Shown piece by piece: positions 321 through 48,186 of a stretch of DNA of 57,037 nucleotides. The translations under genes were made by a program, and so were the position numbers. The notes beneath the pieces are model-generated. The model saw only the letters and a program-made list of their open reading frames with translations, was not told the origin of the DNA and did no database searches. Origin of the DNA: Minisyncoccota bacterium (GTDB taxonomy: Bacteria > Patescibacteriota > Minisyncoccia > Phycocordibacterales > UBA1006); contig JALEGN010000019.1 in NCBI GenBank assembly GCA_022763365.1, positions 1 to 57,037 of the forward strand. Reading direction: 5' to 3'. Every line of letters begins with the position of its first letter. Position 1 is the stretch's first letter.

Positions 321-3300
321 TTAACTTCTTAATTCTCCCCACATACAAATTGGACCTATTGTATGGGTACCATCACCATTGTCATAAGGTAAAGAGAATC
401 CACTAGAATCAAAGTCACCAAGGTCAACTAGTAAGTGGCTAGTATTACCATATGAGTTCCTTGCTATTTGATCCCATTCTATTGGTGGAACAGCCGAATT
501 GAGCGATCCATAGCTATTAGGTGTTCCCTGCCAGGCAACATTATTTGTATGATAGGCAGGCCCTATACATGCAGTTTTTGTTGTGGCGTTATCACAGAAT
601 GTTCGTGCCCAGTTATAACTCGTACTATCGTAATCGCCGAATATTTCGTTAGGGTAAACAATTGGATAACATCCTGGTGTACCTGAACCACCTGAACCTC
701 TTCCACAACTCTGAGTTGTATCAGGTTTTGGTGGTGGACAACTTGAATCAGGTGCTAATTGACCATTTTGATCTCGACATACTACTGAACGTGATTGAGT
801 TCCGCCAGAAGAACCACCTGATCCAGCATTCCAGTTACATCCGGCAACTGATTCACATGTAGATTGTGAACCTCCACTACATGATCCATTTGATGGTCCA
901 CTGAGAACACAAATTGATTGTGTTCCATTTGGATCATTAAATCCTGGGTTCGCTGGAAGAGATGTGTGAGTTATTGGTGAACACCATTCGTTCATTCCAA
1001 CCCATTCACCATCATCGTTTGCACAGATATAAGAGGTGTTTTGGTTTTGCCCTGCAGTATCTTGACATGACCCTCTAAATCGACGTCCGTTTTCACGAGC
1101 AGGGGCGTAACCATAATCTGATCGGTAAACACTTCCTGCGGCATAAACGCGTGCTCCATCATATCCGTTAGAATAGTAACTTCCATCAGAAACATGATGT
1201 CTATTCCAGCGGGTACCATCTTCAGAAATTTCATAGACATGTGGCGTTGGGAATTCAGCCCCTTGTGCAGCAATACATGCTGTAGCTGAACCAGATCCAC
1301 CACCTCCATTTGTTGAGATAGGCTGTGCATTTGTTGCACCATTTGCCATATCAGCATCTATCAGGTGTGGACAGTAATCATTAATTGTTTGGGTATTGTA
1401 GACGTATCCATCCGTCCAGTTAAACGGATTTCCATTCCAATCAATTTTTCCTCCTTGTCCTCCTGTTGGTGTTCCTGAACATGAACCACTAGACTGTAGT
1501 CCTCCTGAACAAGTTCCCCAATCTCCGATATCCCAATCAAAAGTATCATTATTTACAGGTGATTGAGATGAACAAGAAACGGTTTCTGCTCCTGAATTAC
1601 AACTCCATGTGTAGGTGGTAGGGAAACCTGGAGCACCTGCAGACGGATAAACTTGCGTAGCAGTACCAACCGAACACAATGAATCACCTGATGGTTGTGG
1701 TCCAGTTGTCCCATTAGCTGAACCACAAACCGGTGAAGCGAAACAACCCTCTGTTGTGGATGTTTCTGGCTTAGGACCCGTACCATTATCAATACATGTT
1801 TGATCTGGATGCGTGTTACCAAGAGAATCTTGACAAGTTACCACTCTTTCACGTGATGATTCTCCAGCAGGAGTAAAGCTACATGCAGAATTCTGTGACG
1901 TACATGCTGATTGCGATGTTGGTCCTGAACATGAATTGGTTGTAGTTGAGCTATTTGCGTTCCAGGTACAACTATCATTTTGTGATTCACATGCTGATTG
2001 CGATGTTGGTCCTGAACATGAATTGGTTGTAGAACCTGAACCCCAAGTACAACTTGAGTAAAAATTACAGAAACCTTCATTTCCATCAAAATTAGAACAT
2101 GAATTCGTCGTAGTTGACCCTGAAGTAGAAGGACTATTAATATTCAAGCTTAAGTTACGTCTATCATTGTGGTATTGATTTGTAACAGCTGATTGATTTG
2201 AAGGGTTACTCCAGTTAGAACTTGCAAACCAACCATTAGGATTGTAGCGAACATGTTGATTGGCATGGATATTATCACCAGCATTAAGATCAACTTCAAA
2301 ACTAAAAGTATAACTATTTCTTCCATTTTCCATTTCAGTATAGATAACTTCACCTCCTGCTGGTAAAGAATTATTAGTCCTTCTTATTCTCAACTGTGAA
2401 TTAATATACTGTGAAGAGGTACTAGTTCGTACAACAGTACCGGAAATTGTATATGTTCGTGTTTCTGGAATTTCAATTCTATATAAATTATTGAGATCAG
2501 ACGAATCATCAGCATAAGTAGTATTTAATCCAACATTATATACATGATTTGCTTCATCATATGAGGCTAAATTTCTTCCCACATTTGAACCCACACCTTC
2601 TGTAGTACCACTATCGATATTTACTTCACTTTGACCTCCAGTACTTGTGGTATATGTCCCTGAACAAGTATTAGATGAACCTGTTGTTGTATATGATCCT
2701 TCACAAGAGCCTCCATTACTTGATGTAGTTGTATATGATCCTGAACAAGAAGCAGCACTTGAATCTGAACATGGTCCATATTCTCCAACTTGCCAATCAT
2801 AGGTTAATGGTTCATCAGTAACTTCACCACCTGAACAGGTGTAAAGTGTTCCGTCTTGTTGAGCACATACTCGGCTATGTGTTGTTAGATCACGTGGAGC
2901 AAGATTCCCTGATTGATCTAATCTAGCAAGTCCGGTAACTAAAATACTATCAAAACCTGCTTGTGTTGCTTGAACTATAAAAGCTCCTGGGATTCCTCCA
3001 GGAAATGATGTTGCGCTACCACCACTAAAATTTCCAATAGCTGTTTTTCCTGTTAAATAGGCTGAACGATCAACTAATAAATTGATAAATGCAGACCCTC
3101 CTGAAACATCTAAACAAGTTTCTCGTGCAGGCGCACTTAATTCTGCTACGATACAATCTTGAACTTGGTTTACAATCCAAGATGCTGAAGTTGTGTCTCC
3201 GATAGTTAAAGAACCATTTCTTTCAATAAGATTCCCAGCTCCACCTCCAATAAATGGAACAACATTTGAAGCTAAGACACTTGAAACTCCTCCCAATAAA

Positions 3301-3374
3301 GCAAATGAGAGTGCGAGACCAAGAACGATAGATCGTGATGTTTGTGTGTTTATTTTACGCAAAAGTTTTTTCAT
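321..3374 (-). CDS. Large secreted Cys/Ser/Thr/Gly-rich surface protein with TSP1-like modules (hypothetical adhesin)
   Basis: 1017-aa ORF with signal peptide MKKLLRKINTQTSRSIVLGLALSFALLGGVSSVLA. Contains C.G.YTTT x3, a 29-aa tandem repeat TNSCSGPTSQSAC.SQN..C, and the motifs W..G.(W/Y)G.CS and R.VVC.D....C...KP.....C. The N-terminal ~170 aa align with the next gene. Confidence 0.85.
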   Translation of the reverse strand: MKKLLRKINTQTSRSIVLGLALSFALLGGVSSVLASNVVPFIGGGAGNLIERNGSLTIGDTTSASWIVNQVQDCIVAELSAPARETCLDVSGGSAFINLLVDRSAYLTGKTAIGNFSGGSATSFPGGIPGAFIVQATQAGFDSILVTGLARLDQSGNLAPRDLTTHSRVCAQQDGTLYTCSGGEVTDEPLTYDWQVGEYGPCSDSSAASCSGSYTTTSSNGGSCEGSYTTTGSSNTCSGTYTTSTGGQSEVNIDSGTTEGVGSNVGRNLASYDEANHVYNVGLNTTYADDSSDLNNLYRIEIPETRTYTISGTVVRTSTSSQYINSQLRIRRTNNSLPAGGEVIYTEMENGRNSYTFSFEVDLNAGDNIHANQHVRYNPNGWFASSNWSNPSNQSAVTNQYHNDRRNLSLNINSPSTSGSTTTNSCSNFDGNEGFCNFYSSCTWGSGSTTNSCSGPTSQSACESQNDSCTWNANSSTTTNSCSGPTSQSACTSQNSACSFTPAGESSRERVVTCQDSLGNTHPDQTCIDNGTGPKPETSTTEGCFASPVCGSANGTTGPQPSGDSLCSVGTATQVYPSAGAPGFPTTYTWSCNSGAETVSCSSQSPVNNDTFDWDIGDWGTCSGGLQSSGSCSGTPTGGQGGKIDWNGNPFNWTDGYVYNTQTINDYCPHLIDADMANGATNAQPISTNGGGGSGSATACIAAQGAEFPTPHVYEISEDGTRWNRHHVSDGSYYSNGYDGARVYAAGSVYRSDYGYAPARENGRRFRGSCQDTAGQNQNTSYICANDDGEWVGMNEWCSPITHTSLPANPGFNDPNGTQSICVLSGPSNGSCSGGSQSTCESVAGCNWNAGSGGSSGGTQSRSVVCRDQNGQLAPDSSCPPPKPDTTQSCGRGSGGSGTPGCYPIVYPNEIFGDYDSTSYNWARTFCDNATTKTACIGPAYHTNNVAWQGTPNSYGSLNSAVPPIEWDQIARNSYGNTSHLLVDLGDFDSSGFSLPYDNGDGTHTIGPICMWGELRS
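1902..2032 (-). repeat. Intragenic tandem duplication (87-bp period, 44-bp perfect core)
   Basis: ACATGCTGATTGCGATGTTGGTCCTGAACATGAATTGGTTGTAG occurs at 1902-1945 and 1989-2032. It encodes the 29-aa repeat TNSCSGPTSQSAC. Confidence 0.9.
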
Positions 3375-3480: not shown

Positions 3481-5418
3481 TTAACAAATTCCGTCAAAGT
3501 CATCTGCTTGACCATTATTGTTGGTGTCATACATATCACATGCACCATACCAACAGAAGATTCCTGATGCACAATCAGAATTTGAATTACATGCATCTCC
3601 ACAAGATCCGTTAGATGAACCTGACCCAGAATTTCCTTGCTGCGTCACACATGAACCAGGACAAACATTATAAGCGTCATAGTATGACTGACAATCACAA
3701 CCACCCTGACCATCTGATACACAGGCATTTCCTCCTGGTGAGACAGGAAGTTGTGATTGTGGGAAGACTCCTGGACATTGCTGAGATAGACAATTTCTTG
3801 ATGTTTCAGGAGTTGGTGAACCACAGAGCGAATTAGAAACAACATTATTATTGTTATCTCGACACACTACAATTCGTGATTGACTACCATTTGAACATGT
3901 TCCCCATGGACCTACATCCCATGAATAACTTACCCTATCAGCATCACAAATAGCAACTAGTCCTCCATTAATACCCTGACATGACCAATCCCATGTTGTT
4001 AGAGTATCCGTTTCATCTTGATAACTACCTGCTAAACAACCATTTGATGCGTTTGCTGGTTGTGATGAGTAGCTTCCTGGGAAATTAGCACACTGTCCAT
4101 TTGTTGATGAAGCTTGATAGTTTGCAGAACATGAAGCAGTTGTTCCTCCATTTGATCCTGCACAGGTCCAGGTATAATCTGCAGTTCCCCCTCTACCTGT
4201 CGTTGTATTATCGGCAACTGTTGAGGCTGTACCTGAGGCACAAAGATTTCTCGATGGTGCTGAAGAGAAAGTTCCTCCATCAGCTGAACCACATTGACCA
4301 TTACTTGATCCCGCACACTGATTATTTGGTGGAATTGAATCAGCACAAACAAGATCACCATTTTGATAAGCTACTGAAATTTGATAATCAGGATACGGAC
4401 AATTCATTGCACCGTAGCGAGCAGGTGACCATGTTCCATCAGATTGACATAAGAATGCTGGATCAGCTGGCACTGAACAGGTTCCATTATCAGGAGCTGA
4501 TGGGTTACATACAATATCACCCTGAGCATAGATTGATGAGCTTGAATAATCTTGATACGGACAATTCATTGCACCGTAGCGAGTTGTATTCCATTCACCT
4601 GGATTAAGACCTCCACAGACCCAAGCAGGATCAGGTGTGGTTGTACAATTAGCATGATTAGGTGTTGATGTTGAACATACTCGATCTCCTGTCGTGTATG
4701 ATCCCGCTGAATCATATTCATTTAATCGGCCATAATTTGTTTGAACAGGACATGAATCGAGTACTGCCAATCCACCTTGGATCGTACCATTACCAATGTC
4801 GGTACCGTCAGCAGCTCGGTATTGAGGTCGTTGCCACTGACCGCTTCCGGTCGTGTAATCACACTGATATTCGTAGTATTCAATATCAGGACATAATACA
4901 AGTGCTCCTCGATTAGTAACACATACACGTTCAGTTCCAGAGGTGTTTTGTAAGTTTGTCGCCAAGGTATTTCCAATAACATTTACTTTTTGTACTTGGT
5001 TCAAAAGATTAAGCGGATTTCCAGAAGTATCATTAACTACTCCTTGCATTTGATTCCAAATAGTTGCCGTGTCTGGACCAATAACAAGTTTTCCTAGAAA
5101 ATACGAATTTTGAAGCACTGCAAAGGCTGCATTCGTTGCTGTATTGTCAAACCATGATACAGCCCCAGCTGGCCCTCGAGCATCTAGACCAATACCATTT
5201 AGAAAACAGTTTGCTTGATTTATATTAGAAGGACAATCACCCAAACGGAGTTCATCAACAGCTTGTTCTCCACCACCTCGATGAATCAATGGGTTTAAGT
5301 CACCGATTTGTCCAGGTGAAGCATATTGGGCACTCGCCAAAGAAACACCAGCGGTTAATACCAAGGTGACAATAGCAACATAGGCAAAATTAATTTTTTG
5401 TGTAAAGAATTTTTTCAT
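3481..5418 (-). CDS. Secreted Cys-rich surface protein, paralog of 321..3374, with one intact TSP1-like repeat
   Basis: 645-aa ORF with signal peptide MKKFFTQKINFAYVAIVTLVLTAGVSLASA. Has a 54-aa internal repeat (...GD.VC...C..P.DPA..C...W...RYGAMNCPY.DY). The segment WDVGPWGTCSNGSQSRIVVCRDNNNNVVSNSLCGSPTPETSRNC resembles a thrombospondin type-1 repeat. Two CG..G......LC..G....W.W.C.G.NGG...C modules are shared with 321..3374. Confidence 0.85.
   Translation of the reverse strand: MKKFFTQKINFAYVAIVTLVLTAGVSLASAQYASPGQIGDLNPLIHRGGGEQAVDELRLGDCPSNINQANCFLNGIGLDARGPAGAVSWFDNTATNAAFAVLQNSYFLGKLVIGPDTATIWNQMQGVVNDTSGNPLNLLNQVQKVNVIGNTLATNLQNTSGTERVCVTNRGALVLCPDIEYYEYQCDYTTGSGQWQRPQYRAADGTDIGNGTIQGGLAVLDSCPVQTNYGRLNEYDSAGSYTTGDRVCSTSTPNHANCTTTPDPAWVCGGLNPGEWNTTRYGAMNCPYQDYSSSSIYAQGDIVCNPSAPDNGTCSVPADPAFLCQSDGTWSPARYGAMNCPYPDYQISVAYQNGDLVCADSIPPNNQCAGSSNGQCGSADGGTFSSAPSRNLCASGTASTVADNTTTGRGGTADYTWTCAGSNGGTTASCSANYQASSTNGQCANFPGSYSSQPANASNGCLAGSYQDETDTLTTWDWSCQGINGGLVAICDADRVSYSWDVGPWGTCSNGSQSRIVVCRDNNNNVVSNSLCGSPTPETSRNCLSQQCPGVFPQSQLPVSPGGNACVSDGQGGCDCQSYYDAYNVCPGSCVTQQGNSGSGSSNGSCGDACNSNSDCASGIFCWYGACDMYDTNNNGQADDFDGIC
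4392..4582 (-). repeat. Intragenic repeat (162-bp period, 29-bp perfect core)
   Basis: GATACGGACAATTCATTGCACCGTAGCGA occurs at 4392-4420 and 4554-4582. It encodes RYGAMNCPY in a 54-aa repeat. Confidence 0.9.
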
Positions 5419-27767: not shown

Positions 27768-28685
27768 GTGAACATCAACGAAGCACTCCAAAGATTTCTG
27801 GAATACCAAGAAATTGAAAAAGGAAGGTCATTAAAAACCGTCCGCAATTATAGACAATATATTTCCAAATATATTGAATTTTCTGATATCACAAACATCA
27901 CTGATATTAATGCTGAGAATATTCGTCAATTCAGATTACATCTGAACCGGCAGCCAGGAATCAAGATTAAAGGTCAGCAATCAGGAACAATGAAAAAACG
28001 AACCCAAAATTATTATCTGATTGCCCTTCGTATGTTTTTAAAATATCTCATGAAGCAAGGGTATAAGGTCTATAGCCCAGAAAATATAGAGCTGGCAAAA
28101 ACCGAGGCTCGTCATATTGATCATCTAGGAATTGATGAACTGCGGCGGATGCTTGAGGTGGCACAAAAGCATCCACGCAATTTTGCCATCATGCATATGC
28201 TCTTTTCAACAGGATTACGTGTATCTGAATTAACCTCACTCAATCGAGATATTGATTTGTCCAAAGAAGAGATGACCATTCGCGGTAAGGGAGATAAATT
28301 ACGTATTGTCTTTTTAAGTCCAAATGCAAAGAAATCGGTCAAAGAATATCTGAATAACCGAACTGATATGGACGAAGCATTATTCATTCAAGAAGGTCCG
28401 CGCGTTGTGAAACTAGAGGAGCAGAATGTTTCACTTCGCCTTTCCGCGAGATCTGTGGAGCGTCTGGTGAAACAAATTGCAATCGAAGCGGGTATATCAA
28501 AAAAGGTTACCCCACACACCATTAGGCATTCATTCGCAACAGATTTACTGAGAAACGGTGCAGATATTCGTAGTGTCCAAATGCTCTTGGGGCATAGTAA
28601 TATCGCAACAACACAGATATATACCCACATTACCGATAAACAATTACGTGAAGTACATAAAAAGTTTCATAACAATAATAACTAA
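27768..28685 (+). CDS. xerC: Tyrosine recombinase XerC/XerD family
   Basis: RHSFATDLLRNGADIRSVQMLLGHSNIATTQIYTHI (R-H-R-Y catalytic region) and FSTGLRVSEL. GTG start 6 nt after TATAAT. Confidence 0.9.
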   Translation: MNINEALQRFLEYQEIEKGRSLKTVRNYRQYISKYIEFSDITNITDINAENIRQFRLHLNRQPGIKIKGQQSGTMKKRTQNYYLIALRMFLKYLMKQGYKVYSPENIELAKTEARHIDHLGIDELRRMLEVAQKHPRNFAIMHMLFSTGLRVSELTSLNRDIDLSKEEMTIRGKGDKLRIVFLSPNAKKSVKEYLNNRTDMDEALFIQEGPRVVKLEEQNVSLRLSARSVERLVKQIAIEAGISKKVTPHTIRHSFATDLLRNGADIRSVQMLLGHSNIATTQIYTHITDKQLREVHKKFHNNNN

Positions 28686-34642: not shown

Positions 34643-36139
34643 TTAGACCTTATGTTTTCGATGGAGTTTTTTCACGGCTCTAAATTCCTCTTCGTCTTTT
34701 TTATCTTTGCCGGCTTCGCCGAGCTTTTTGAGCTCATGATCTTCGAGCTCAAAAAGCTCTCGCGTTCGACCTTCTAAATACTCTCTGGTATTTAGTGTTG
34801 GGTCATCCAAAACCTCTTCAAGAAGAGCATGGAGTACCCATCCCATTTTAGGTCCAGGTTTCAGTCCCATTTCACCAATCATAATGTCCCCATTAATTTT
34901 TAACATACCAACTGAAATAGGGTCACGCATAACCTCTTCAATCATCGCATGGTACTTCCGTAATCGATACGGTTTTTCTTTTGGACGTCCTGTTCCAATG
35001 CGGTCACAGGTGCGCAAATCCATTAAATCCCAAATGAGTTCTTTACCAACATTTTTAATCATCCGCCTCACTGCTGAGAGGGTGATAGCATCTGGGTCAG
35101 AGAAAAACATGTGATAACGAACGAGTTTCACAACTTTGTCCATAGTTTCATTCGGAAATTTTAATCGACGCATAATCTCCTTAGTCATCTTTGCACCAAC
35201 AACCTCATGTCCATAAAAAGTCCATTCTTTGCTGCCGCGTCCGTTGGCCTTTCGTCTCGTCCGAGGTTTCCCAATATCATGAAACAGTGCGGCAAGTTTC
35301 ACATAAAATGGATACTCTTTATAAGTTCCATGCTCAAGTGATTTAATATTATGTGTCCAAACATCAAATGAATGAATACCACCTTGCTCGCAGTCTACTC
35401 CTTCAAGCAACTCTGGAACAATGTATTCCAACAACCCGAGCTTATGTAAATGCACCATTCCATCTTTGGCATACGGTGCATCAACCAATTTTATAAACTC
35501 GTCCCGAATACGTTCGGCTGAAATATTAGCCAAAGAGGCAGCGTGTTTTTTAATTGATGTCATCGTTTCAGTTTCACATATGAAACCGAGTTGCGAAGCA
35601 AAGCGTATTGCCCGCATTATCCGAAGGGCATCTTCGGAAAATCGCTCATCAGGATTACCAACCGTCCGAATAACTGAATTACCTAAATCCTCTTTTCCTT
35701 GATAATTATCAATCAGTGAATTATGAATAGGATCATAGGCCATCGCATTAATGGTAAAGTCTCTCCGCATAAGGTCCTCATGAATATCCGTACTAAAGGA
35801 CACATCATCAGGTCTTCGGCTATCAGAATAATTTCCCTCTGTCCTATATGGGGTTATTTCTATTTCATAACCCGGGTGATTTTTTTCAAGGTCTTTGTTA
35901 ATAATACCCACAGTTCCAAAATTATTTTCATATACAACCCGTCGATCAGTTTTTTCAAACACTGAAATAATTTGCTCAGGAGTTGCATTGGTCGTCACAT
36001 CATAATCATGAGGAACTCGGGCGAGGTAGATATCACGAACGCAACCACCTACAATATACGATTCATATCCAGCGTTCTGAAGCTCATTGAGTGTCCAGAT
36101 AACTTCTTTTGGTATGCTATTTTTTTGCACCTCATTCAT
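34643..36139 (-). CDS. cca: CCA-adding tRNA nucleotidyltransferase with HD domain
   Basis: GGCVRDIYL, DYDVTT and RRDFTINAMA motifs, plus HD region LFHDIGKP. 498 aa. Confidence 0.93.
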   Translation of the reverse strand: MNEVQKNSIPKEVIWTLNELQNAGYESYIVGGCVRDIYLARVPHDYDVTTNATPEQIISVFEKTDRRVVYENNFGTVGIINKDLEKNHPGYEIEITPYRTEGNYSDSRRPDDVSFSTDIHEDLMRRDFTINAMAYDPIHNSLIDNYQGKEDLGNSVIRTVGNPDERFSEDALRIMRAIRFASQLGFICETETMTSIKKHAASLANISAERIRDEFIKLVDAPYAKDGMVHLHKLGLLEYIVPELLEGVDCEQGGIHSFDVWTHNIKSLEHGTYKEYPFYVKLAALFHDIGKPRTRRKANGRGSKEWTFYGHEVVGAKMTKEIMRRLKFPNETMDKVVKLVRYHMFFSDPDAITLSAVRRMIKNVGKELIWDLMDLRTCDRIGTGRPKEKPYRLRKYHAMIEEVMRDPISVGMLKINGDIMIGEMGLKPGPKMGWVLHALLEEVLDDPTLNTREYLEGRTRELFELEDHELKKLGEAGKDKKDEEEFRAVKKLHRKHKV

Positions 36140-41031: not shown

Positions 41032-41032
41032 T

Positions 41033-41104
41033 TGCACCCGCCAGGACTCGAACCTGGAATAACGGTTCCGAAGACCGTTGTGATATCCATTTCACCACAG
41101 GTGG
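41033..41104 (-). tRNA. tRNA-Arg (anticodon UCG), no encoded CCA
   Basis: Hand-folded cloverleaf: D arm GTGA/TCAC, anticodon stem ACGGT/ACCGT with loop CTTCGGA (anticodon TCG), T arm CCAGG-TTCGAGT-CCTGG. The acceptor pairs at 6 of 7 positions (C1 opposite C72). Followed by AAT, not CCA. Confidence 0.8.
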
Positions 41105-41127
41105 AGAAGCTTTATTAAGCTGACATA

Positions 41128-41155
41128 AGTATAGATATTTTAAGTATTTACGCAA
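41128..41155 (-). promoter_or_regulatory. Promoter of tRNA-Arg: TTGCGT-16 nt-TATACT
   Basis: -35 at 41150-41155 and -10 at 41128-41133 on the reverse strand, about 23 nt upstream of the tRNA 5' end. Confidence 0.55.
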
Positions 41156-41478
41156 GTTTTTTATATTTGTATACATAGATGGGGTATATCTCAAAAATGT
41201 GAGGGTATTTTTATGAAAATTTGACAAAAAAAGCCATAAAACAAAAAAAGACGCAATTTAAAATACTTAATATCAAGCATAAAATCAAATAGATTTAATA
41301 AAATAACAAACAAAATAAGGGTCTTAGAAAAGAGTTGTTTATAAATCAGTGCAAGCTGTGGATAACTTTGGGTATAAGGGGGATAAAAGACAAAAAGTAT
41401 AGTGACTTTTATAAAAGACATTTATGTTTAAATTGATGGTTTAATCCAATGAAACCTTACATAATCAATAAAATTAAG

Positions 41479-42304
41479 GTTTCACGTGAAAACCAGCTTA
41501 TTAAATCATTCGTTTCATATTAAACATCACTTAAATACTAAAAACTTATTTAAATTAAAAATGGAATTGTATTCAATAGAGCATCTTAGAAAGAGATGTT
41601 ATATACAAAACAATTAGATACTAAAATATTAGTACAGATAGAAAATTAATAATTGATTATTAATAAGGTGTTTCACATGAAACTTAGAAAACTCCTTCAA
41701 AATAATTCAAATAAATAAGAATCTAATAAGAAAAATACTCAAATAAATTTATCCTTAATAAGTGCTATAGTAGTTTCATATGAAACGTTTCACCGCTCTA
41801 AAGCAGAAGATTGGTAAATATGGAGAAGATATCTGTGTCAAATGGCTTGAAAATAATAATTACACGATCACAGAAAGAAACTTCACAACAAGATCAGGAG
41901 AAATAGATATTATTGCTCAAAAAACCAAAATACTCCATTTTATTGAAGTTAAAAGTATTATTAACAGAAACAACTCCAATGTTACACATGAAACATATAA
42001 TCCCGCAGAAAATATGACAAAAGCAAAGATCTCAAAGTGTTATAGTGTGATACATGAATATAAACAACTACATAAGGTTACACATGAAACACAACTAGAT
42101 TTATACATGGTATTTATTGATAATAATAATCGTAAACATAGAATAAAAAGAATCGAGAATATATTCTAAAATAATTGTTACACATGAAACAATTTAATCC
42201 CGTTTAATAAACCAAACTCAAGGAAAAGTATTCTTAAATAACAACAAACTTTCAGCATGTTTCTTTTTCACATAAAACACTAATATATCGAGAAACCGTG
42301 AAAC
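41479..42304 (+). repeat. Dispersed, same-orientation array of dyad motif GTT(T/A)CA-NN-TGAAAC
   Basis: Copies start at 41479, 41670, 41773, 41981, 42077 and 42177 (the last three are the identical 14-mer GTTACACATGAAAC). Degenerate copies start at 42265 and 42292. Confidence 0.85.
41780..42169 (+). CDS. yraN: YraN/UPF0102 family endonuclease-like protein
   Basis: 129 aa. GKYGEDICVKWLENNNYTITERNFTTRSGEIDIIAQKTKILHFIEVKS matches the G..GE..A..YL...G..I..RN.R...GEIDIIA......FVEVK pattern. Confidence 0.8.
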   Translation: MKRFTALKQKIGKYGEDICVKWLENNNYTITERNFTTRSGEIDIIAQKTKILHFIEVKSIINRNNSNVTHETYNPAENMTKAKISKCYSVIHEYKQLHKVTHETQLDLYMVFIDNNNRKHRIKRIENIF

Positions 42305-42438
42305 TTTTAAATTATTTTTAAAATAAAAGGTTATTTTAAATGAAAAAATGAAACTACTATAATTTAAGAAATAGTAATGAACTATACTAATGTCAACTTT
42401 ATCCATCCAACATCCATAAATTAGACATAGACAAAAGA

Positions 42439-42466
42439 TTGCTCAAATTCATCTTTATGGTAGTAT
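42439..42466 (+). promoter_or_regulatory. Promoter of tRNA-Pro: TTGCTC-16 nt-(TGG)TAGTAT
   Basis: The -10 hexamer ends 13 nt before the tRNA 5' end. Confidence 0.5.
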
Positions 42467-42479
42467 AGCTGTGTTATAT

Positions 42480-42552
42480 CGGGGTGTGGTGTAACGGCTA
42501 ACATGCTCGTTTTGGGTACGAGTGACTCCGGGTTCGAATCCCGGCTCCCCGA
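42480..42552 (+). tRNA. tRNA-Pro (anticodon UGG), no encoded CCA
   Basis: Hand-folded cloverleaf: acceptor CGGGGTG/CTCCCCG (C1-G72, U6-U67 mismatch), anticodon stem CTCGT/ACGAG with loop TTTGGGT, T arm CCGGG-TTCGAAT-CCCGG, discriminator A, then CAA. Confidence 0.9.
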
Positions 42553-42562
42553 CAAAAAATAG

Positions 42563-47350: not shown

Positions 47351-47379
47351 AAAAAACCCGAACTCGTTCGGGTTTTTTT
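47351..47379. terminator. Bidirectional terminator
   Basis: AAAAAACCCGAAC-TCG-TTCGGGTTTTTTT between convergent nadK and 47378..47668. Confidence 0.85.
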
Positions 47380-47668
47380 ATTTGCTTGCTTCATCAATAG
47401 TGATTTGAAAATCATTCCACCATTTAGTAACACGAGCAGTAAATTCGTCCCAATCAGCTTCCAGCCAATCAGCACCTGCATTAACTTCTTCTGAAAAATT
47501 TTTCATTGCGTCATTATATTTCAGTCGTGTTTCAGCATTTATTTTGTCAGCTCGTGCGTCCATTTCTTGGACGATTGCATTCCATTTTTCTATATAATTG
47601 TTATTACTCATATTAGTTAAAGTTTTAATGCGAATAATAGAGTCATAAGGACAATATTGCGCGTACAT
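47378..47668 (-). CDS. Small Trp-rich helical hypothetical protein
   Basis: 96-aa ORF. TATAAA (47676-47681) is 7 nt upstream of the ATG. An alternative internal start exists at 47611. Confidence 0.5.
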   Translation of the reverse strand: MYAQYCPYDSIIRIKTLTNMSNNNYIEKWNAIVQEMDARADKINAETRLKYNDAMKNFSEEVNAGADWLEADWDEFTARVTKWWNDFQITIDEASK

Positions 47669-47706
47669 CCTTATATTTATAACCTAGGTTTGATAAATCA
47701 CGTGAT

Positions 47707-48186
47707 TCATTCAAGTACCGTAGGAATTAAAGAATGAATAAGTTGTGCGTGCACAAAAGGAGTAATTTCAGTATTAGGTGAGACGATAGCCTTTTGTTCA
47801 AGTTCTAACTCGAAGCTATTTATACTCCCTGAAATAGGCCGTACCGTAACATCTACACCATTATTTTTATTGTAGTTTACAGAAATGAGCTGTTTTTTAG
47901 TTTCAGTATCGACTTCTAAAATAGTCGCTTCTTTTTCAATTAAAAATTCAACAGATTCTTGATATACCTTAATGGACTTAATTTCTTCGTGTTGATTACT
48001 AAGATAAGAGATATAGTTTAGTAAATCTACTTCATTGCCAACTTGTTGGTAATGAAGTTCTTTAATTTGAGAAGATGAGTTTGTTTCATTTTCAGCAAAT
48101 ACTCTATTAAAACCAATAAATACAAGAGATACTACGACTATAAAGAGAGTAGAAAAAATCAAATGAAATTGTTTTTTCTTTAACAT
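47707..48186 (-). CDS. Signal-anchored hypothetical protein
   Basis: 159 aa with N-terminal hydrophobic segment LIFSTLFIVVVSLVFIGF. Uses a TGA stop. Confidence 0.6.
   Translation of the reverse strand: MLKKKQFHLIFSTLFIVVVSLVFIGFNRVFAENETNSSSQIKELHYQQVGNEVDLLNYISYLSNQHEEIKSIKVYQESVEFLIEKEATILEVDTETKKQLISVNYNKNNGVDVTVRPISGSINSFELELEQKAIVSPNTEITPFVHAQLIHSLIPTVLE

Follow-up and report, generated by a model that had tools for sequence, protein, structure and literature searches.

What is the short palindrome that recurs around a single gene in the 57,037-nucleotide contig JALEGN010000019.1 of a Minisyncoccota bacterium (the window), and what protein would read it? The palindrome, a dyad of the form GTT(T/A)CA-YR-TGAAAC (Y, pyrimidine; R, purine), is repeated in the AT-rich gap between two tRNA genes, where it lies upstream of, inside and downstream of yraN. 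A first-pass annotation of the window had described the dyads and concluded that no annotated feature type explains them, a conclusion that does not hold, since the word is that of the canonical ParB site parS and the same pattern finds ParB-linked loci in many phyla. The dyads are very probably parS sites which, by their sequence and arrangement, would together form the chromosomal centromere, i.e. the ParB loading array, of this Paceibacteria/Parcubacteria-type bacterium.

The array consists of six good and two degenerate copies and spans 41479–42278, in a tRNA-Arg/tRNA-Pro gap with a guanine-plus-cytosine (GC) content of 0.27 that holds yraN as its single real gene. Taking each site as a 16-mer, namely the dyad with one flanking base on each side, and scoring it against the parS consensus TGTTNCACGTGAAACA, the block is laid out as follows.

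41032..41105, minus strand: tRNA-Arg(TCG), conserved left border of the block.
41478..41493: parS-like site 1, GGTTTCACGTGAAAAC, CG centre, 13/16 to TGTTNCACGTGAAACA; intergenic, 301 nt 5' of yraN.
41511..41526: degenerate parS-like site, CGTTTCATATTAAACA, TA centre; the 14-mer has one outer mismatch.
41669..41684: parS-like site 2, TGTTTCACATGAAACT, CA centre, 14/16; intergenic, 110 nt 5' of yraN.
41772..41787: parS-like site 3, AGTTTCATATGAAACG, TA centre; its ATG is the yraN start codon.
41780..42169, plus strand: yraN, host gene of the array, 129 amino acids; open reading frame (ORF) call, PF02021.
41980..41995: parS-like site 4, TGTTACACATGAAACA, 15/16; in frame 0, encoding V68-T-H-E-T72.
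42076..42091: parS-like site 5, GGTTACACATGAAACA, 14/16; in frame 0, encoding V100-T-H-E-T104.
42176..42191: parS-like site 6, TGTTACACATGAAACA, 15/16; starts 8 nt past the yraN stop codon.
42264..42279: degenerate parS-like site, TTTTTCACATAAAACA, 13/16.
42298..42304, minus strand: isolated half-site GTTTCAC.
42480..42553, plus strand: tRNA-Pro(TGG), conserved right border of the block.

All six good copies had been placed correctly in the first-pass annotation (41479, GTTTCACGTGAAAA(C); 41670, GTTTCACATGAAAC; 41773, GTTTCATATGAAAC; 41981, 42077 and 42177, GTTACACATGAAAC), as had the yraN start codon in the 41773 copy, the frame-0 VTHET peptides of the 41981 and 42077 copies and the 8-nt distance of the 42177 copy from the stop codon. 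Two degenerate copies had also been listed, of which the one at 42265 stands (TTTTCACATAAAAC), while the one at 42292 is merely the half-site at 42298–42304; a further degenerate copy at 41512 (GTTTCATATTAAAC) had been missed. Chance does not account for the array, in agreement with the original description: the word GTTWCANNTGAAAC gives seven strand matches, all inside 41.6–42.2 kb, against 0.02 expected from shuffled sequence, with no shuffle reaching seven. Allowing up to two mismatches, there are 24 matches in the window against 4.0 expected, and all those with no or one mismatch lie between 41479 and 42190. Outside the array, no further dyad copies were found anywhere else in the 57-kb window.

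To place this word among known sites, we compared it with the chromosomal parS consensus of the literature, TGTTNCACGTGAAACA or GTTTCACGTGAAAC, which is the site of ParB/Spo0J. The window copies match TGTTNCACGTGAAACA at 13–15 of 16 positions, two of them at 15, and the T/A variation in the motif as first described is explained by the degeneracy of parS position 5. Relatives were drawn from the Candidate Phyla Radiation (CPR), with ten close-homologue loci that were fetched (L005–L014) plus 66 loci from a scan with a 15-sequence YraN alignment, totals being reported for 74 loci; the 66 belong to Paceibacterota, Nomura-, Yonath-, Wolfe-, Kaiser- and Adlerbacteria and others in GTDB, and 14 non-CPR yraN loci were taken alongside. 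The perfect canonical word TGTTTCACGTGAAACA is present in these relatives (L012:3849, L012:4326 and L014:2). A logo of 303 CPR sites reads T-GTTTCA-YR-TGAAAC-A, with the flanking T (−1) and A (+1) favoured and a transition at the central CG as the main departure from the parS consensus. Additionally, a control scan of species-representative genomes for two GTTTCAYRTGAAAC copies 10–40 bp apart returned, among the matches listed, Streptomyces, Alphaproteobacteria, Clostridia, Bacteroidota and others, and roughly 60 of 120 control loci (8 kb each, again among the matches listed) encode a ParB 36–48% identical to the Spo0J probe. About half of the control loci thus encode ParB, and the pattern therefore detects genuine parS sites. 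Judged by its sequence, the repeated palindrome is a standard parS-type word.

The arrangement is conserved in relatives, as an inspection of the orthologous tRNA-Arg/yraN/tRNA-Pro locus confirmed. The ten close loci carry 6–17 sites each in and around yraN, with essentially none in the remaining 10–20 kb of flank, and sites recur at the start codon, near codons 65–68, near codons 97–104 and just past the stop codon, the last being occupied in most relatives. A start-codon site is also found in L006, L008, L009, L010, L012 and L014 at offset −7, and in L005 and L011 at offset +2, where the gene call begins at an upstream ATG. In the 66 added CPR genomes, site density falls from 2.9 per kb in yraN to 0.75 within 1 kb, 0.31 at 1–3 kb and 0.004 beyond 3 kb, the last figure corresponding to two sites in 559 kb; over the 74 genomes, densities of 2.9–9 sites per kb in yraN compare with 0.004–0.009 past 3 kb. 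No in-gene sites were found in yraN of the 14 non-CPR loci. CPR loci hold a median of four sites (range 0–16), with at least three in 52 of 74, and the densest relatives reach 16–17 sites in about 3.5 kb. The word is accordingly rare and confined to one region in the window and in CPR flanks, as seen in sampled loci rather than whole genomes.

The tRNA-Arg(TCG)/yraN/tRNA-Pro(TGG) block, often with tRNA-Gly genes, is kept class-wide (L005–L014 and L135–L189), with varying protein-coding neighbours. In some lineages the cluster has cca, which encodes the CCA-adding enzyme, as a second host gene. Eight good parS-like sites were seen in or beside cca in L012 (1075–2571) and L013 (6966–8462). The window's own cca (34643–36139, minus strand) contains, in the stretch 35125–35586, one GTTTCAC half-site and degenerate sites at 35296 (GTTTCACATAAAAT) and 35573 (TTCACATATGAAAC).

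A protein-level origin of the in-gene copies can be separated from selection on DNA through codon choice. Both VTHET positions align in homologues as V-S/T-x-E-T, and our codon test began from this peptide motif, V[ST]xET with x free, rather than from sites selected on DNA. In 95 motifs, x was His in 35, Tyr in 32, Arg in 16 and Cys in 10, so that these four residues account for 93 (98%) against a background of 12.8%; the sole feature they have in common is that their codons take the form YRT, as at the palindrome's centre. The surrounding codons follow the same word: all 49 valines are GTT (background 0.38) and all 49 glutamates GAA (0.71), serine is TCA in 27 of 36 (0.26), and the last threonine, whose third codon base falls on parS position 16, is ACA in 37 of 49 (0.37). 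Among in-gene copies, 70 lie in frame 0 and 23 in frame 2 (encoding F-H-M/V-K) and none in frame 1, which would contain TGA; frames 0 and 2 are the palindrome's only stop-free frames. Selection thus holds the DNA word and thereby fixes the peptide V-S/T-[H/Y/R/C]-E-T. The first-pass annotation had correctly anticipated a dyad that tolerates in-frame coding positions, and had reasoned that homologues encoding VTHET with different codons and no array nearby would speak against a DNA element; the homologues in fact use the motif's codons and have arrays nearby. Conservation at the DNA level shows, from sequence comparison, that some sequence-specific reader exists.

The host protein appears able to accommodate the in-gene copies. 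YraN matches PF02021 (UPF0102/YraN, a predicted nuclease of PD-(D/E)xK type) with E = 3e-17 and 63 bits against a cut-off of 23.6, and PDB entry 3fov (UPF0102) with E = 1e-8; GEIDII and FIEVKS, the nuclease core GEID...EVK, are invariant in YraN alignments. NCBIfam YraN equivalog cut-offs were not reached, which marks a divergent YraN subfamily. Single-protein searches with YraN and the neighbouring flavin adenine dinucleotide (FAD) oxidase found no close relatives among species-representative genomes, and the 85 YraN homologues in a large protein database include few named organisms, which are CPR/Patescibacteria. In an AlphaFold model (predicted local distance difference test score, pLDDT, 81), the site-encoded residues are predicted to occupy mostly permissive positions: residues 1–4 in the N-terminal tail, the one internal loop that is disordered (65–73), and the turn 99–102 with the first two residues of strand 103–114, the site 5 peptide spanning the modelled turn between helix 81–98 and that strand. 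The motif has also left traces in gene calls. Several yraN homologues are called from a parS-derived upstream ATG, giving proteins that begin MFHMK... (L005:10001, L011:5663, P0002–P0004, P0012, P0017, P0020 and P0029), and mini-ORFs are called from ATGs within other sites, e.g. L006 10404–10496; these upstream starts and mini-ORFs are annotation artefacts caused by the motif.

When left unconstrained in the scan, the central dinucleotide of the 303 sites is CG in 82 (27%), TA in 71, CA in 69 and TG in 57, so that 92% are pyrimidine-purine steps and the sites other than CG are mostly CA/TG or TA. That the Y-R centre is otherwise free suggests readout by shape or flexibility at this position, not by base contacts. 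Counted on the yraN strand, CA and TG centres are roughly equal in number (69 and 57), and the shared orientation of the two in-gene window copies is explained by a preference in frame 0 for His (CAT) over Cys (TGT). The intervals of 191/103/208/96/100/88 nt reported previously are numerically right, but the regular phasing of about 100 nt read into them is not upheld, as spacings in relatives have modes at 20–50, 90–120 and 190–210 nt and no regular period; the near-multiples of 100 nt in the window result from fixed positions at 0, ~200, ~300 and ~400 from the yraN start. Sites within one genome share a centre class more often than shuffled sites (0.396 against 0.308 in 74 CPR loci, with one of 5,000 shuffles reaching the observed value), and L006, L008 and L014 are mostly TA-centred. 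This sharing may reflect genome AT content, a lineage-specific ParB preference or gene conversion.

Half of the dyad on its own carries no comparable signal. The window contains 13 isolated GTTTCAC half-sites against 8.4 expected, which is not an enrichment, and most of the 'extra half-sites' that had been listed do not belong to the array. Three GTTTCAC half-sites were seen within 67 bp at 28407–28473, inside a xerC/D-type recombinase gene (27768–28685), and given the lack of overall enrichment this grouping may be chance. A perfect palindrome, AATCACGTGATT, lies at 47696–47707 in the 38-nt gap between minus-strand ORFs 47378–47668 and 47707–48186; it had been listed as related, but has only the core TCACGTGA in common with the motif and is no copy of it.

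If the array is a centromere, it would be expected on the origin side of the chromosome, and in six relatives it is. In these (L006, L011, L139, L156, L161 and L189) dnaA lies 1.5–8.7 kb downstream of yraN, with an rnpA-yidC/dnaA-dnaN context in L006 and L011 and rpmH also in L006. Published gene tables of Parcubacteria place cca, which is a neighbour of yraN in the window, about 36–43 genes from dnaA (PMC4508563).

The same tables cover proteins that might act at such an array: COG1475, the ParB group, is present in 13 of 17 draft Parcubacteria genomes and SMC in 14 of 17 (PMC4508563, Suppl. Table 1), and the COG1475 gene lies about 200–350 genes from dnaA by locus-tag distance, beside miaA, dprA or clpB (PMC4508563). 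This distant position fits the absence of parB from the sampled loci. A parB far from the parS cluster is unusual among chromosomal systems. Of the neighbours of COG1475 in the published genomes, miaA and clpB are absent from the sampled CPR loci, and the unannotated ORFs flanking the array include nothing partition-like. Among the 120 matches listed by a ParB profile search of a protein database, all near the consensus and Actinobacteria-like, none came from CPR. When metagenome contigs were scanned with a ParB alignment, DnaA identity marked none of the 80 loci returned as CPR-like.

Several observations weigh against a parS centromere and keep our confidence short of certainty. Neither parB nor parA is encoded in the 57-kb window, and tblastn with Spo0J and Soj probes detected neither at distances of up to 10 kb from the 74 CPR arrays, even at E < 5. 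ParA (COG1192) is missing from the Parcubacteria core set of 17 draft genomes (PMC4508563), and given this the full ParABS machine may be absent. At the level of the sites, a single copy of the eight in the window has the canonical CG centre, the searchable literature has no report of CA- and TA-centred variants as parS words, and the binding of ParB to such sites, suggested by their conservation, is putative. Also, the window contig, which covers 41 kb on the minus side and 15 kb on the plus side of the array, lacks dnaA; DnaA boxes are not enriched in it (18 against 21.3 expected); and its GC skew merely tracks gene strand, giving no usable origin signal.

By analogy with characterised systems, the array would work as follows. 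ParB (Spo0J) dimers would bind each site through their helix-turn-helix domains, and bound ParB would close into clamps dependent on cytidine triphosphate (CTP) and slide onto the flanking DNA. Eight closely spaced loading sites could in this way nucleate one large ParB-DNA partition complex near the origin, which would mark and position the origin region for segregation. The complex would probably load the SMC condensin, possibly without ParA as in Streptococcus pneumoniae. Mechanistically, nothing beyond the known ParB-parS system would be needed.

An unlikely, though not negligible, extension would make a functional module of yraN and the parS cluster in Paceibacteria-type CPR bacteria: YraN would act at the centromere or origin region, e.g. 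by processing or resolving DNA in the ParB complex, or would be regulated by ParB occupancy of its own gene. Alternatively, some machinery other than canonical ParABS would read the sites, and the array would be a distinct partition system embedded in a gene instead of parS sites that simply became trapped there. Such a reader was considered because ParA seems to lie outside the core set and parB is distant.

Of the rival readings, the least improbable, given that the cluster stays tied to yraN, is still an unlikely one: the dyads would be a local operator for a locus-specific regulator, perhaps YraN itself, controlling yraN and the flanking tRNA genes. The overlap of sites with the yraN start codon and upstream region would suit an operator, as would the class-wide persistence of array and yraN together while other neighbours change, and the lack of a ParB nearby. 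However, down to its flanking T and A the word agrees exactly with pan-bacterial parS, relatives have perfect 16-mers, and, unlike operator sites, the copies also lie within and 3' of the gene, in L012 and L013 reaching cca 1.5–3 kb away. Moreover, YraN has a nuclease fold without a recognisable sequence-specific DNA-binding domain, and yraN genes outside CPR have no such sites.

Iterons, recombination sites, a mobile palindrome and starts without a ribosome-binding site (RBS) had also been proposed in the first-pass annotation, and these readings found no support. That the dyads are targets of site-specific recombination, or a small mobile palindrome spread within the locus in the manner of miniature inverted-repeat transposable elements (MITEs) or repetitive extragenic palindromes (REPs), is very improbable. 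Three identical 14-mers in 200 bp might suggest recent spread, and the 41981 and 42177 copies have additional flank in common beyond the dyad (ACATGAAACA..TAATCCCG), but the sites occupy orthologous codon positions in proteins 45–65% identical, which makes them ancient rather than recently spread. They are missing from the rest of the window and nearly so from the distal CPR flank, with its two sites in 559 kb, and they lack terminal repeats and target duplications as well as any longer repeat unit. The recombinase of XerC/D type encoded at 27768–28685 could in principle supply an activity, but a dif-type Xer site is about 28 bp long and unlike the dyad word, with an asymmetric core that is usually single-copy, whereas the array has many copies of a symmetric 16-mer. 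A search of reads for deletions and inversions had been proposed; the only covering assembly, Logan contigs of one seawater metagenome, shows no variants, joints, deletions or inversions, contigs being a weak test. The array region 41100–42500 is complete in only one public run, this seawater metagenome, whose study included coral samples as well.

It is likewise highly improbable that the AT-rich gap is a replication origin or part of one, with the dyads as unusual initiator boxes or iterons. Low GC, the proximity of yraN to dnaA in six relatives and a perfect DnaA box upstream of the array (41357–41365, TTATCCACA, minus strand) are what an origin might show. This box is nevertheless the single one in the gap, with no cluster around it and no enrichment in the window as a whole, and the dyad does not fit a DnaA box; half of the copies fall within a coding gene or past its end, and in relatives the rpmH-rnpA-yidC/dnaA-dnaN context lies kilobases from the array. 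Iterons are tandem direct repeats of about 17–22 bp by a rep gene, whereas these copies are palindromes 24–208 nt apart; the window has no rep gene, and housekeeping genes are present on the chromosome.

Least credible is the proposal that each copy is a translation-start module, pairing a Shine-Dalgarno-like TAAGG with ATGAAAC for leaderless genes or mini-ORFs: TAAG(G) precedes three window copies, CA- and TA-centred copies contain an ATG, of which one is the real yraN start, and gene callers begin ORFs there (the L006 10404–10496 call), yet the TAAGG once thought to precede copies overlaps the motif's first G and is not general, upstream G is not enriched in the 303 sites of relatives (only 11–18% at −3 to −1), ORFs from the other ATGs have only 7–13 codons, CG- and TG-centred copies are equally common, with no in-phase start codon at all in those centred on TG, and the palindrome is conserved on both halves.

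With the dyads read as parS, a DNA-binding site explains at once the odd conserved peptide in YraN, the mis-called starts and the spurious mini-ORFs. It is an unusually clean case of dual coding, in which a DNA site fixes synonymous codons and limits one residue to H/Y/R/C. The similar use of CG, CA/TG and TA centres predicts that ParB needs only a pyrimidine-purine step at that position, and the distant parB together with the apparent lack of ParA suggests a ParB-SMC organisation in these minimal cells. In practical terms, the tRNA-Arg(TCG)/yraN/tRNA-Pro(TGG) block with its parS array provides a landmark for the centromere and origin side in a large, uncultured class assembled mostly as fragments. 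We found no report in the literature of parS in CPR bacteria or of a link between parS and yraN; the element is of a textbook kind, and the details that appear to be new are its compact arrangement, embedded in a gene and kept across the class, and the mark that this leaves on the protein sequence.

Away from the array, genes for a fatty-acid desaturase, a spermidine synthase fusion and a GH3-family enzyme give the contig more metabolism than is typical of Parcubacteria. Two minus-strand ORFs, 321–3374 (1017 amino acids) and 3481–5418 (645 amino acids), match the thrombospondin type-1 repeat PF19030, with only the second passing the cut-off. Such a domain is unusual in a small-genome seawater CPR bacterium and may indicate an adhesin.

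Among known systems, the closest likeness is to the chromosomal parS/ParB (Spo0J) of Bacillus subtilis, whose 16-bp inverted repeat is identical down to the degeneracy at position 5 and occurs in several copies near the origin. One of its parS sites lies inside spo0J, so in-gene copies are tolerated there too. However, B. subtilis spreads 10 parS sites over a large origin domain, whereas the array here packs eight copies into 0.8 kb at codon positions of one gene that are fixed class-wide; its centre is relaxed to any Y-R step, and parB is not adjacent. Streptococcus pneumoniae, whose ParB-parS system has four origin-proximal sites, lacks ParA and loads SMC, is a possible functional analogue, as the Parcubacteria core set (core-gene table of 17 draft genomes) likewise has a ParB-family protein and SMC but no ParA; site number and density are much higher here.

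Clusters in Actinobacteria (21 parS sites in Streptomyces coelicolor, three in Mycobacterium smegmatis) and in Caulobacter (five sites) likewise consist of multiple origin-side sites acting as one centromere. Those clusters span tens to hundreds of kilobases and are linked to parAB, in contrast to the ~1-kb cluster here, which sits in yraN between two tRNA genes. Comparable packing is known from plasmid and phage centromeres such as F sopC and P1 parS, with many sites in about 1 kb or less, but their repeats are plasmid-specific and lie beside their own parAB operon, whereas the word of the array described here is the chromosomal consensus, and the chromosome that bears it has housekeeping genes. 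Finally, a ParB paralogue reads the related palindrome of the Noc-binding site (NBS), ATTTCCCGGGAAAT, which differs from the sites here in its outer and central bases; with G2/T3/T4 and a CA-YR-TG core, these sites are parS-type.

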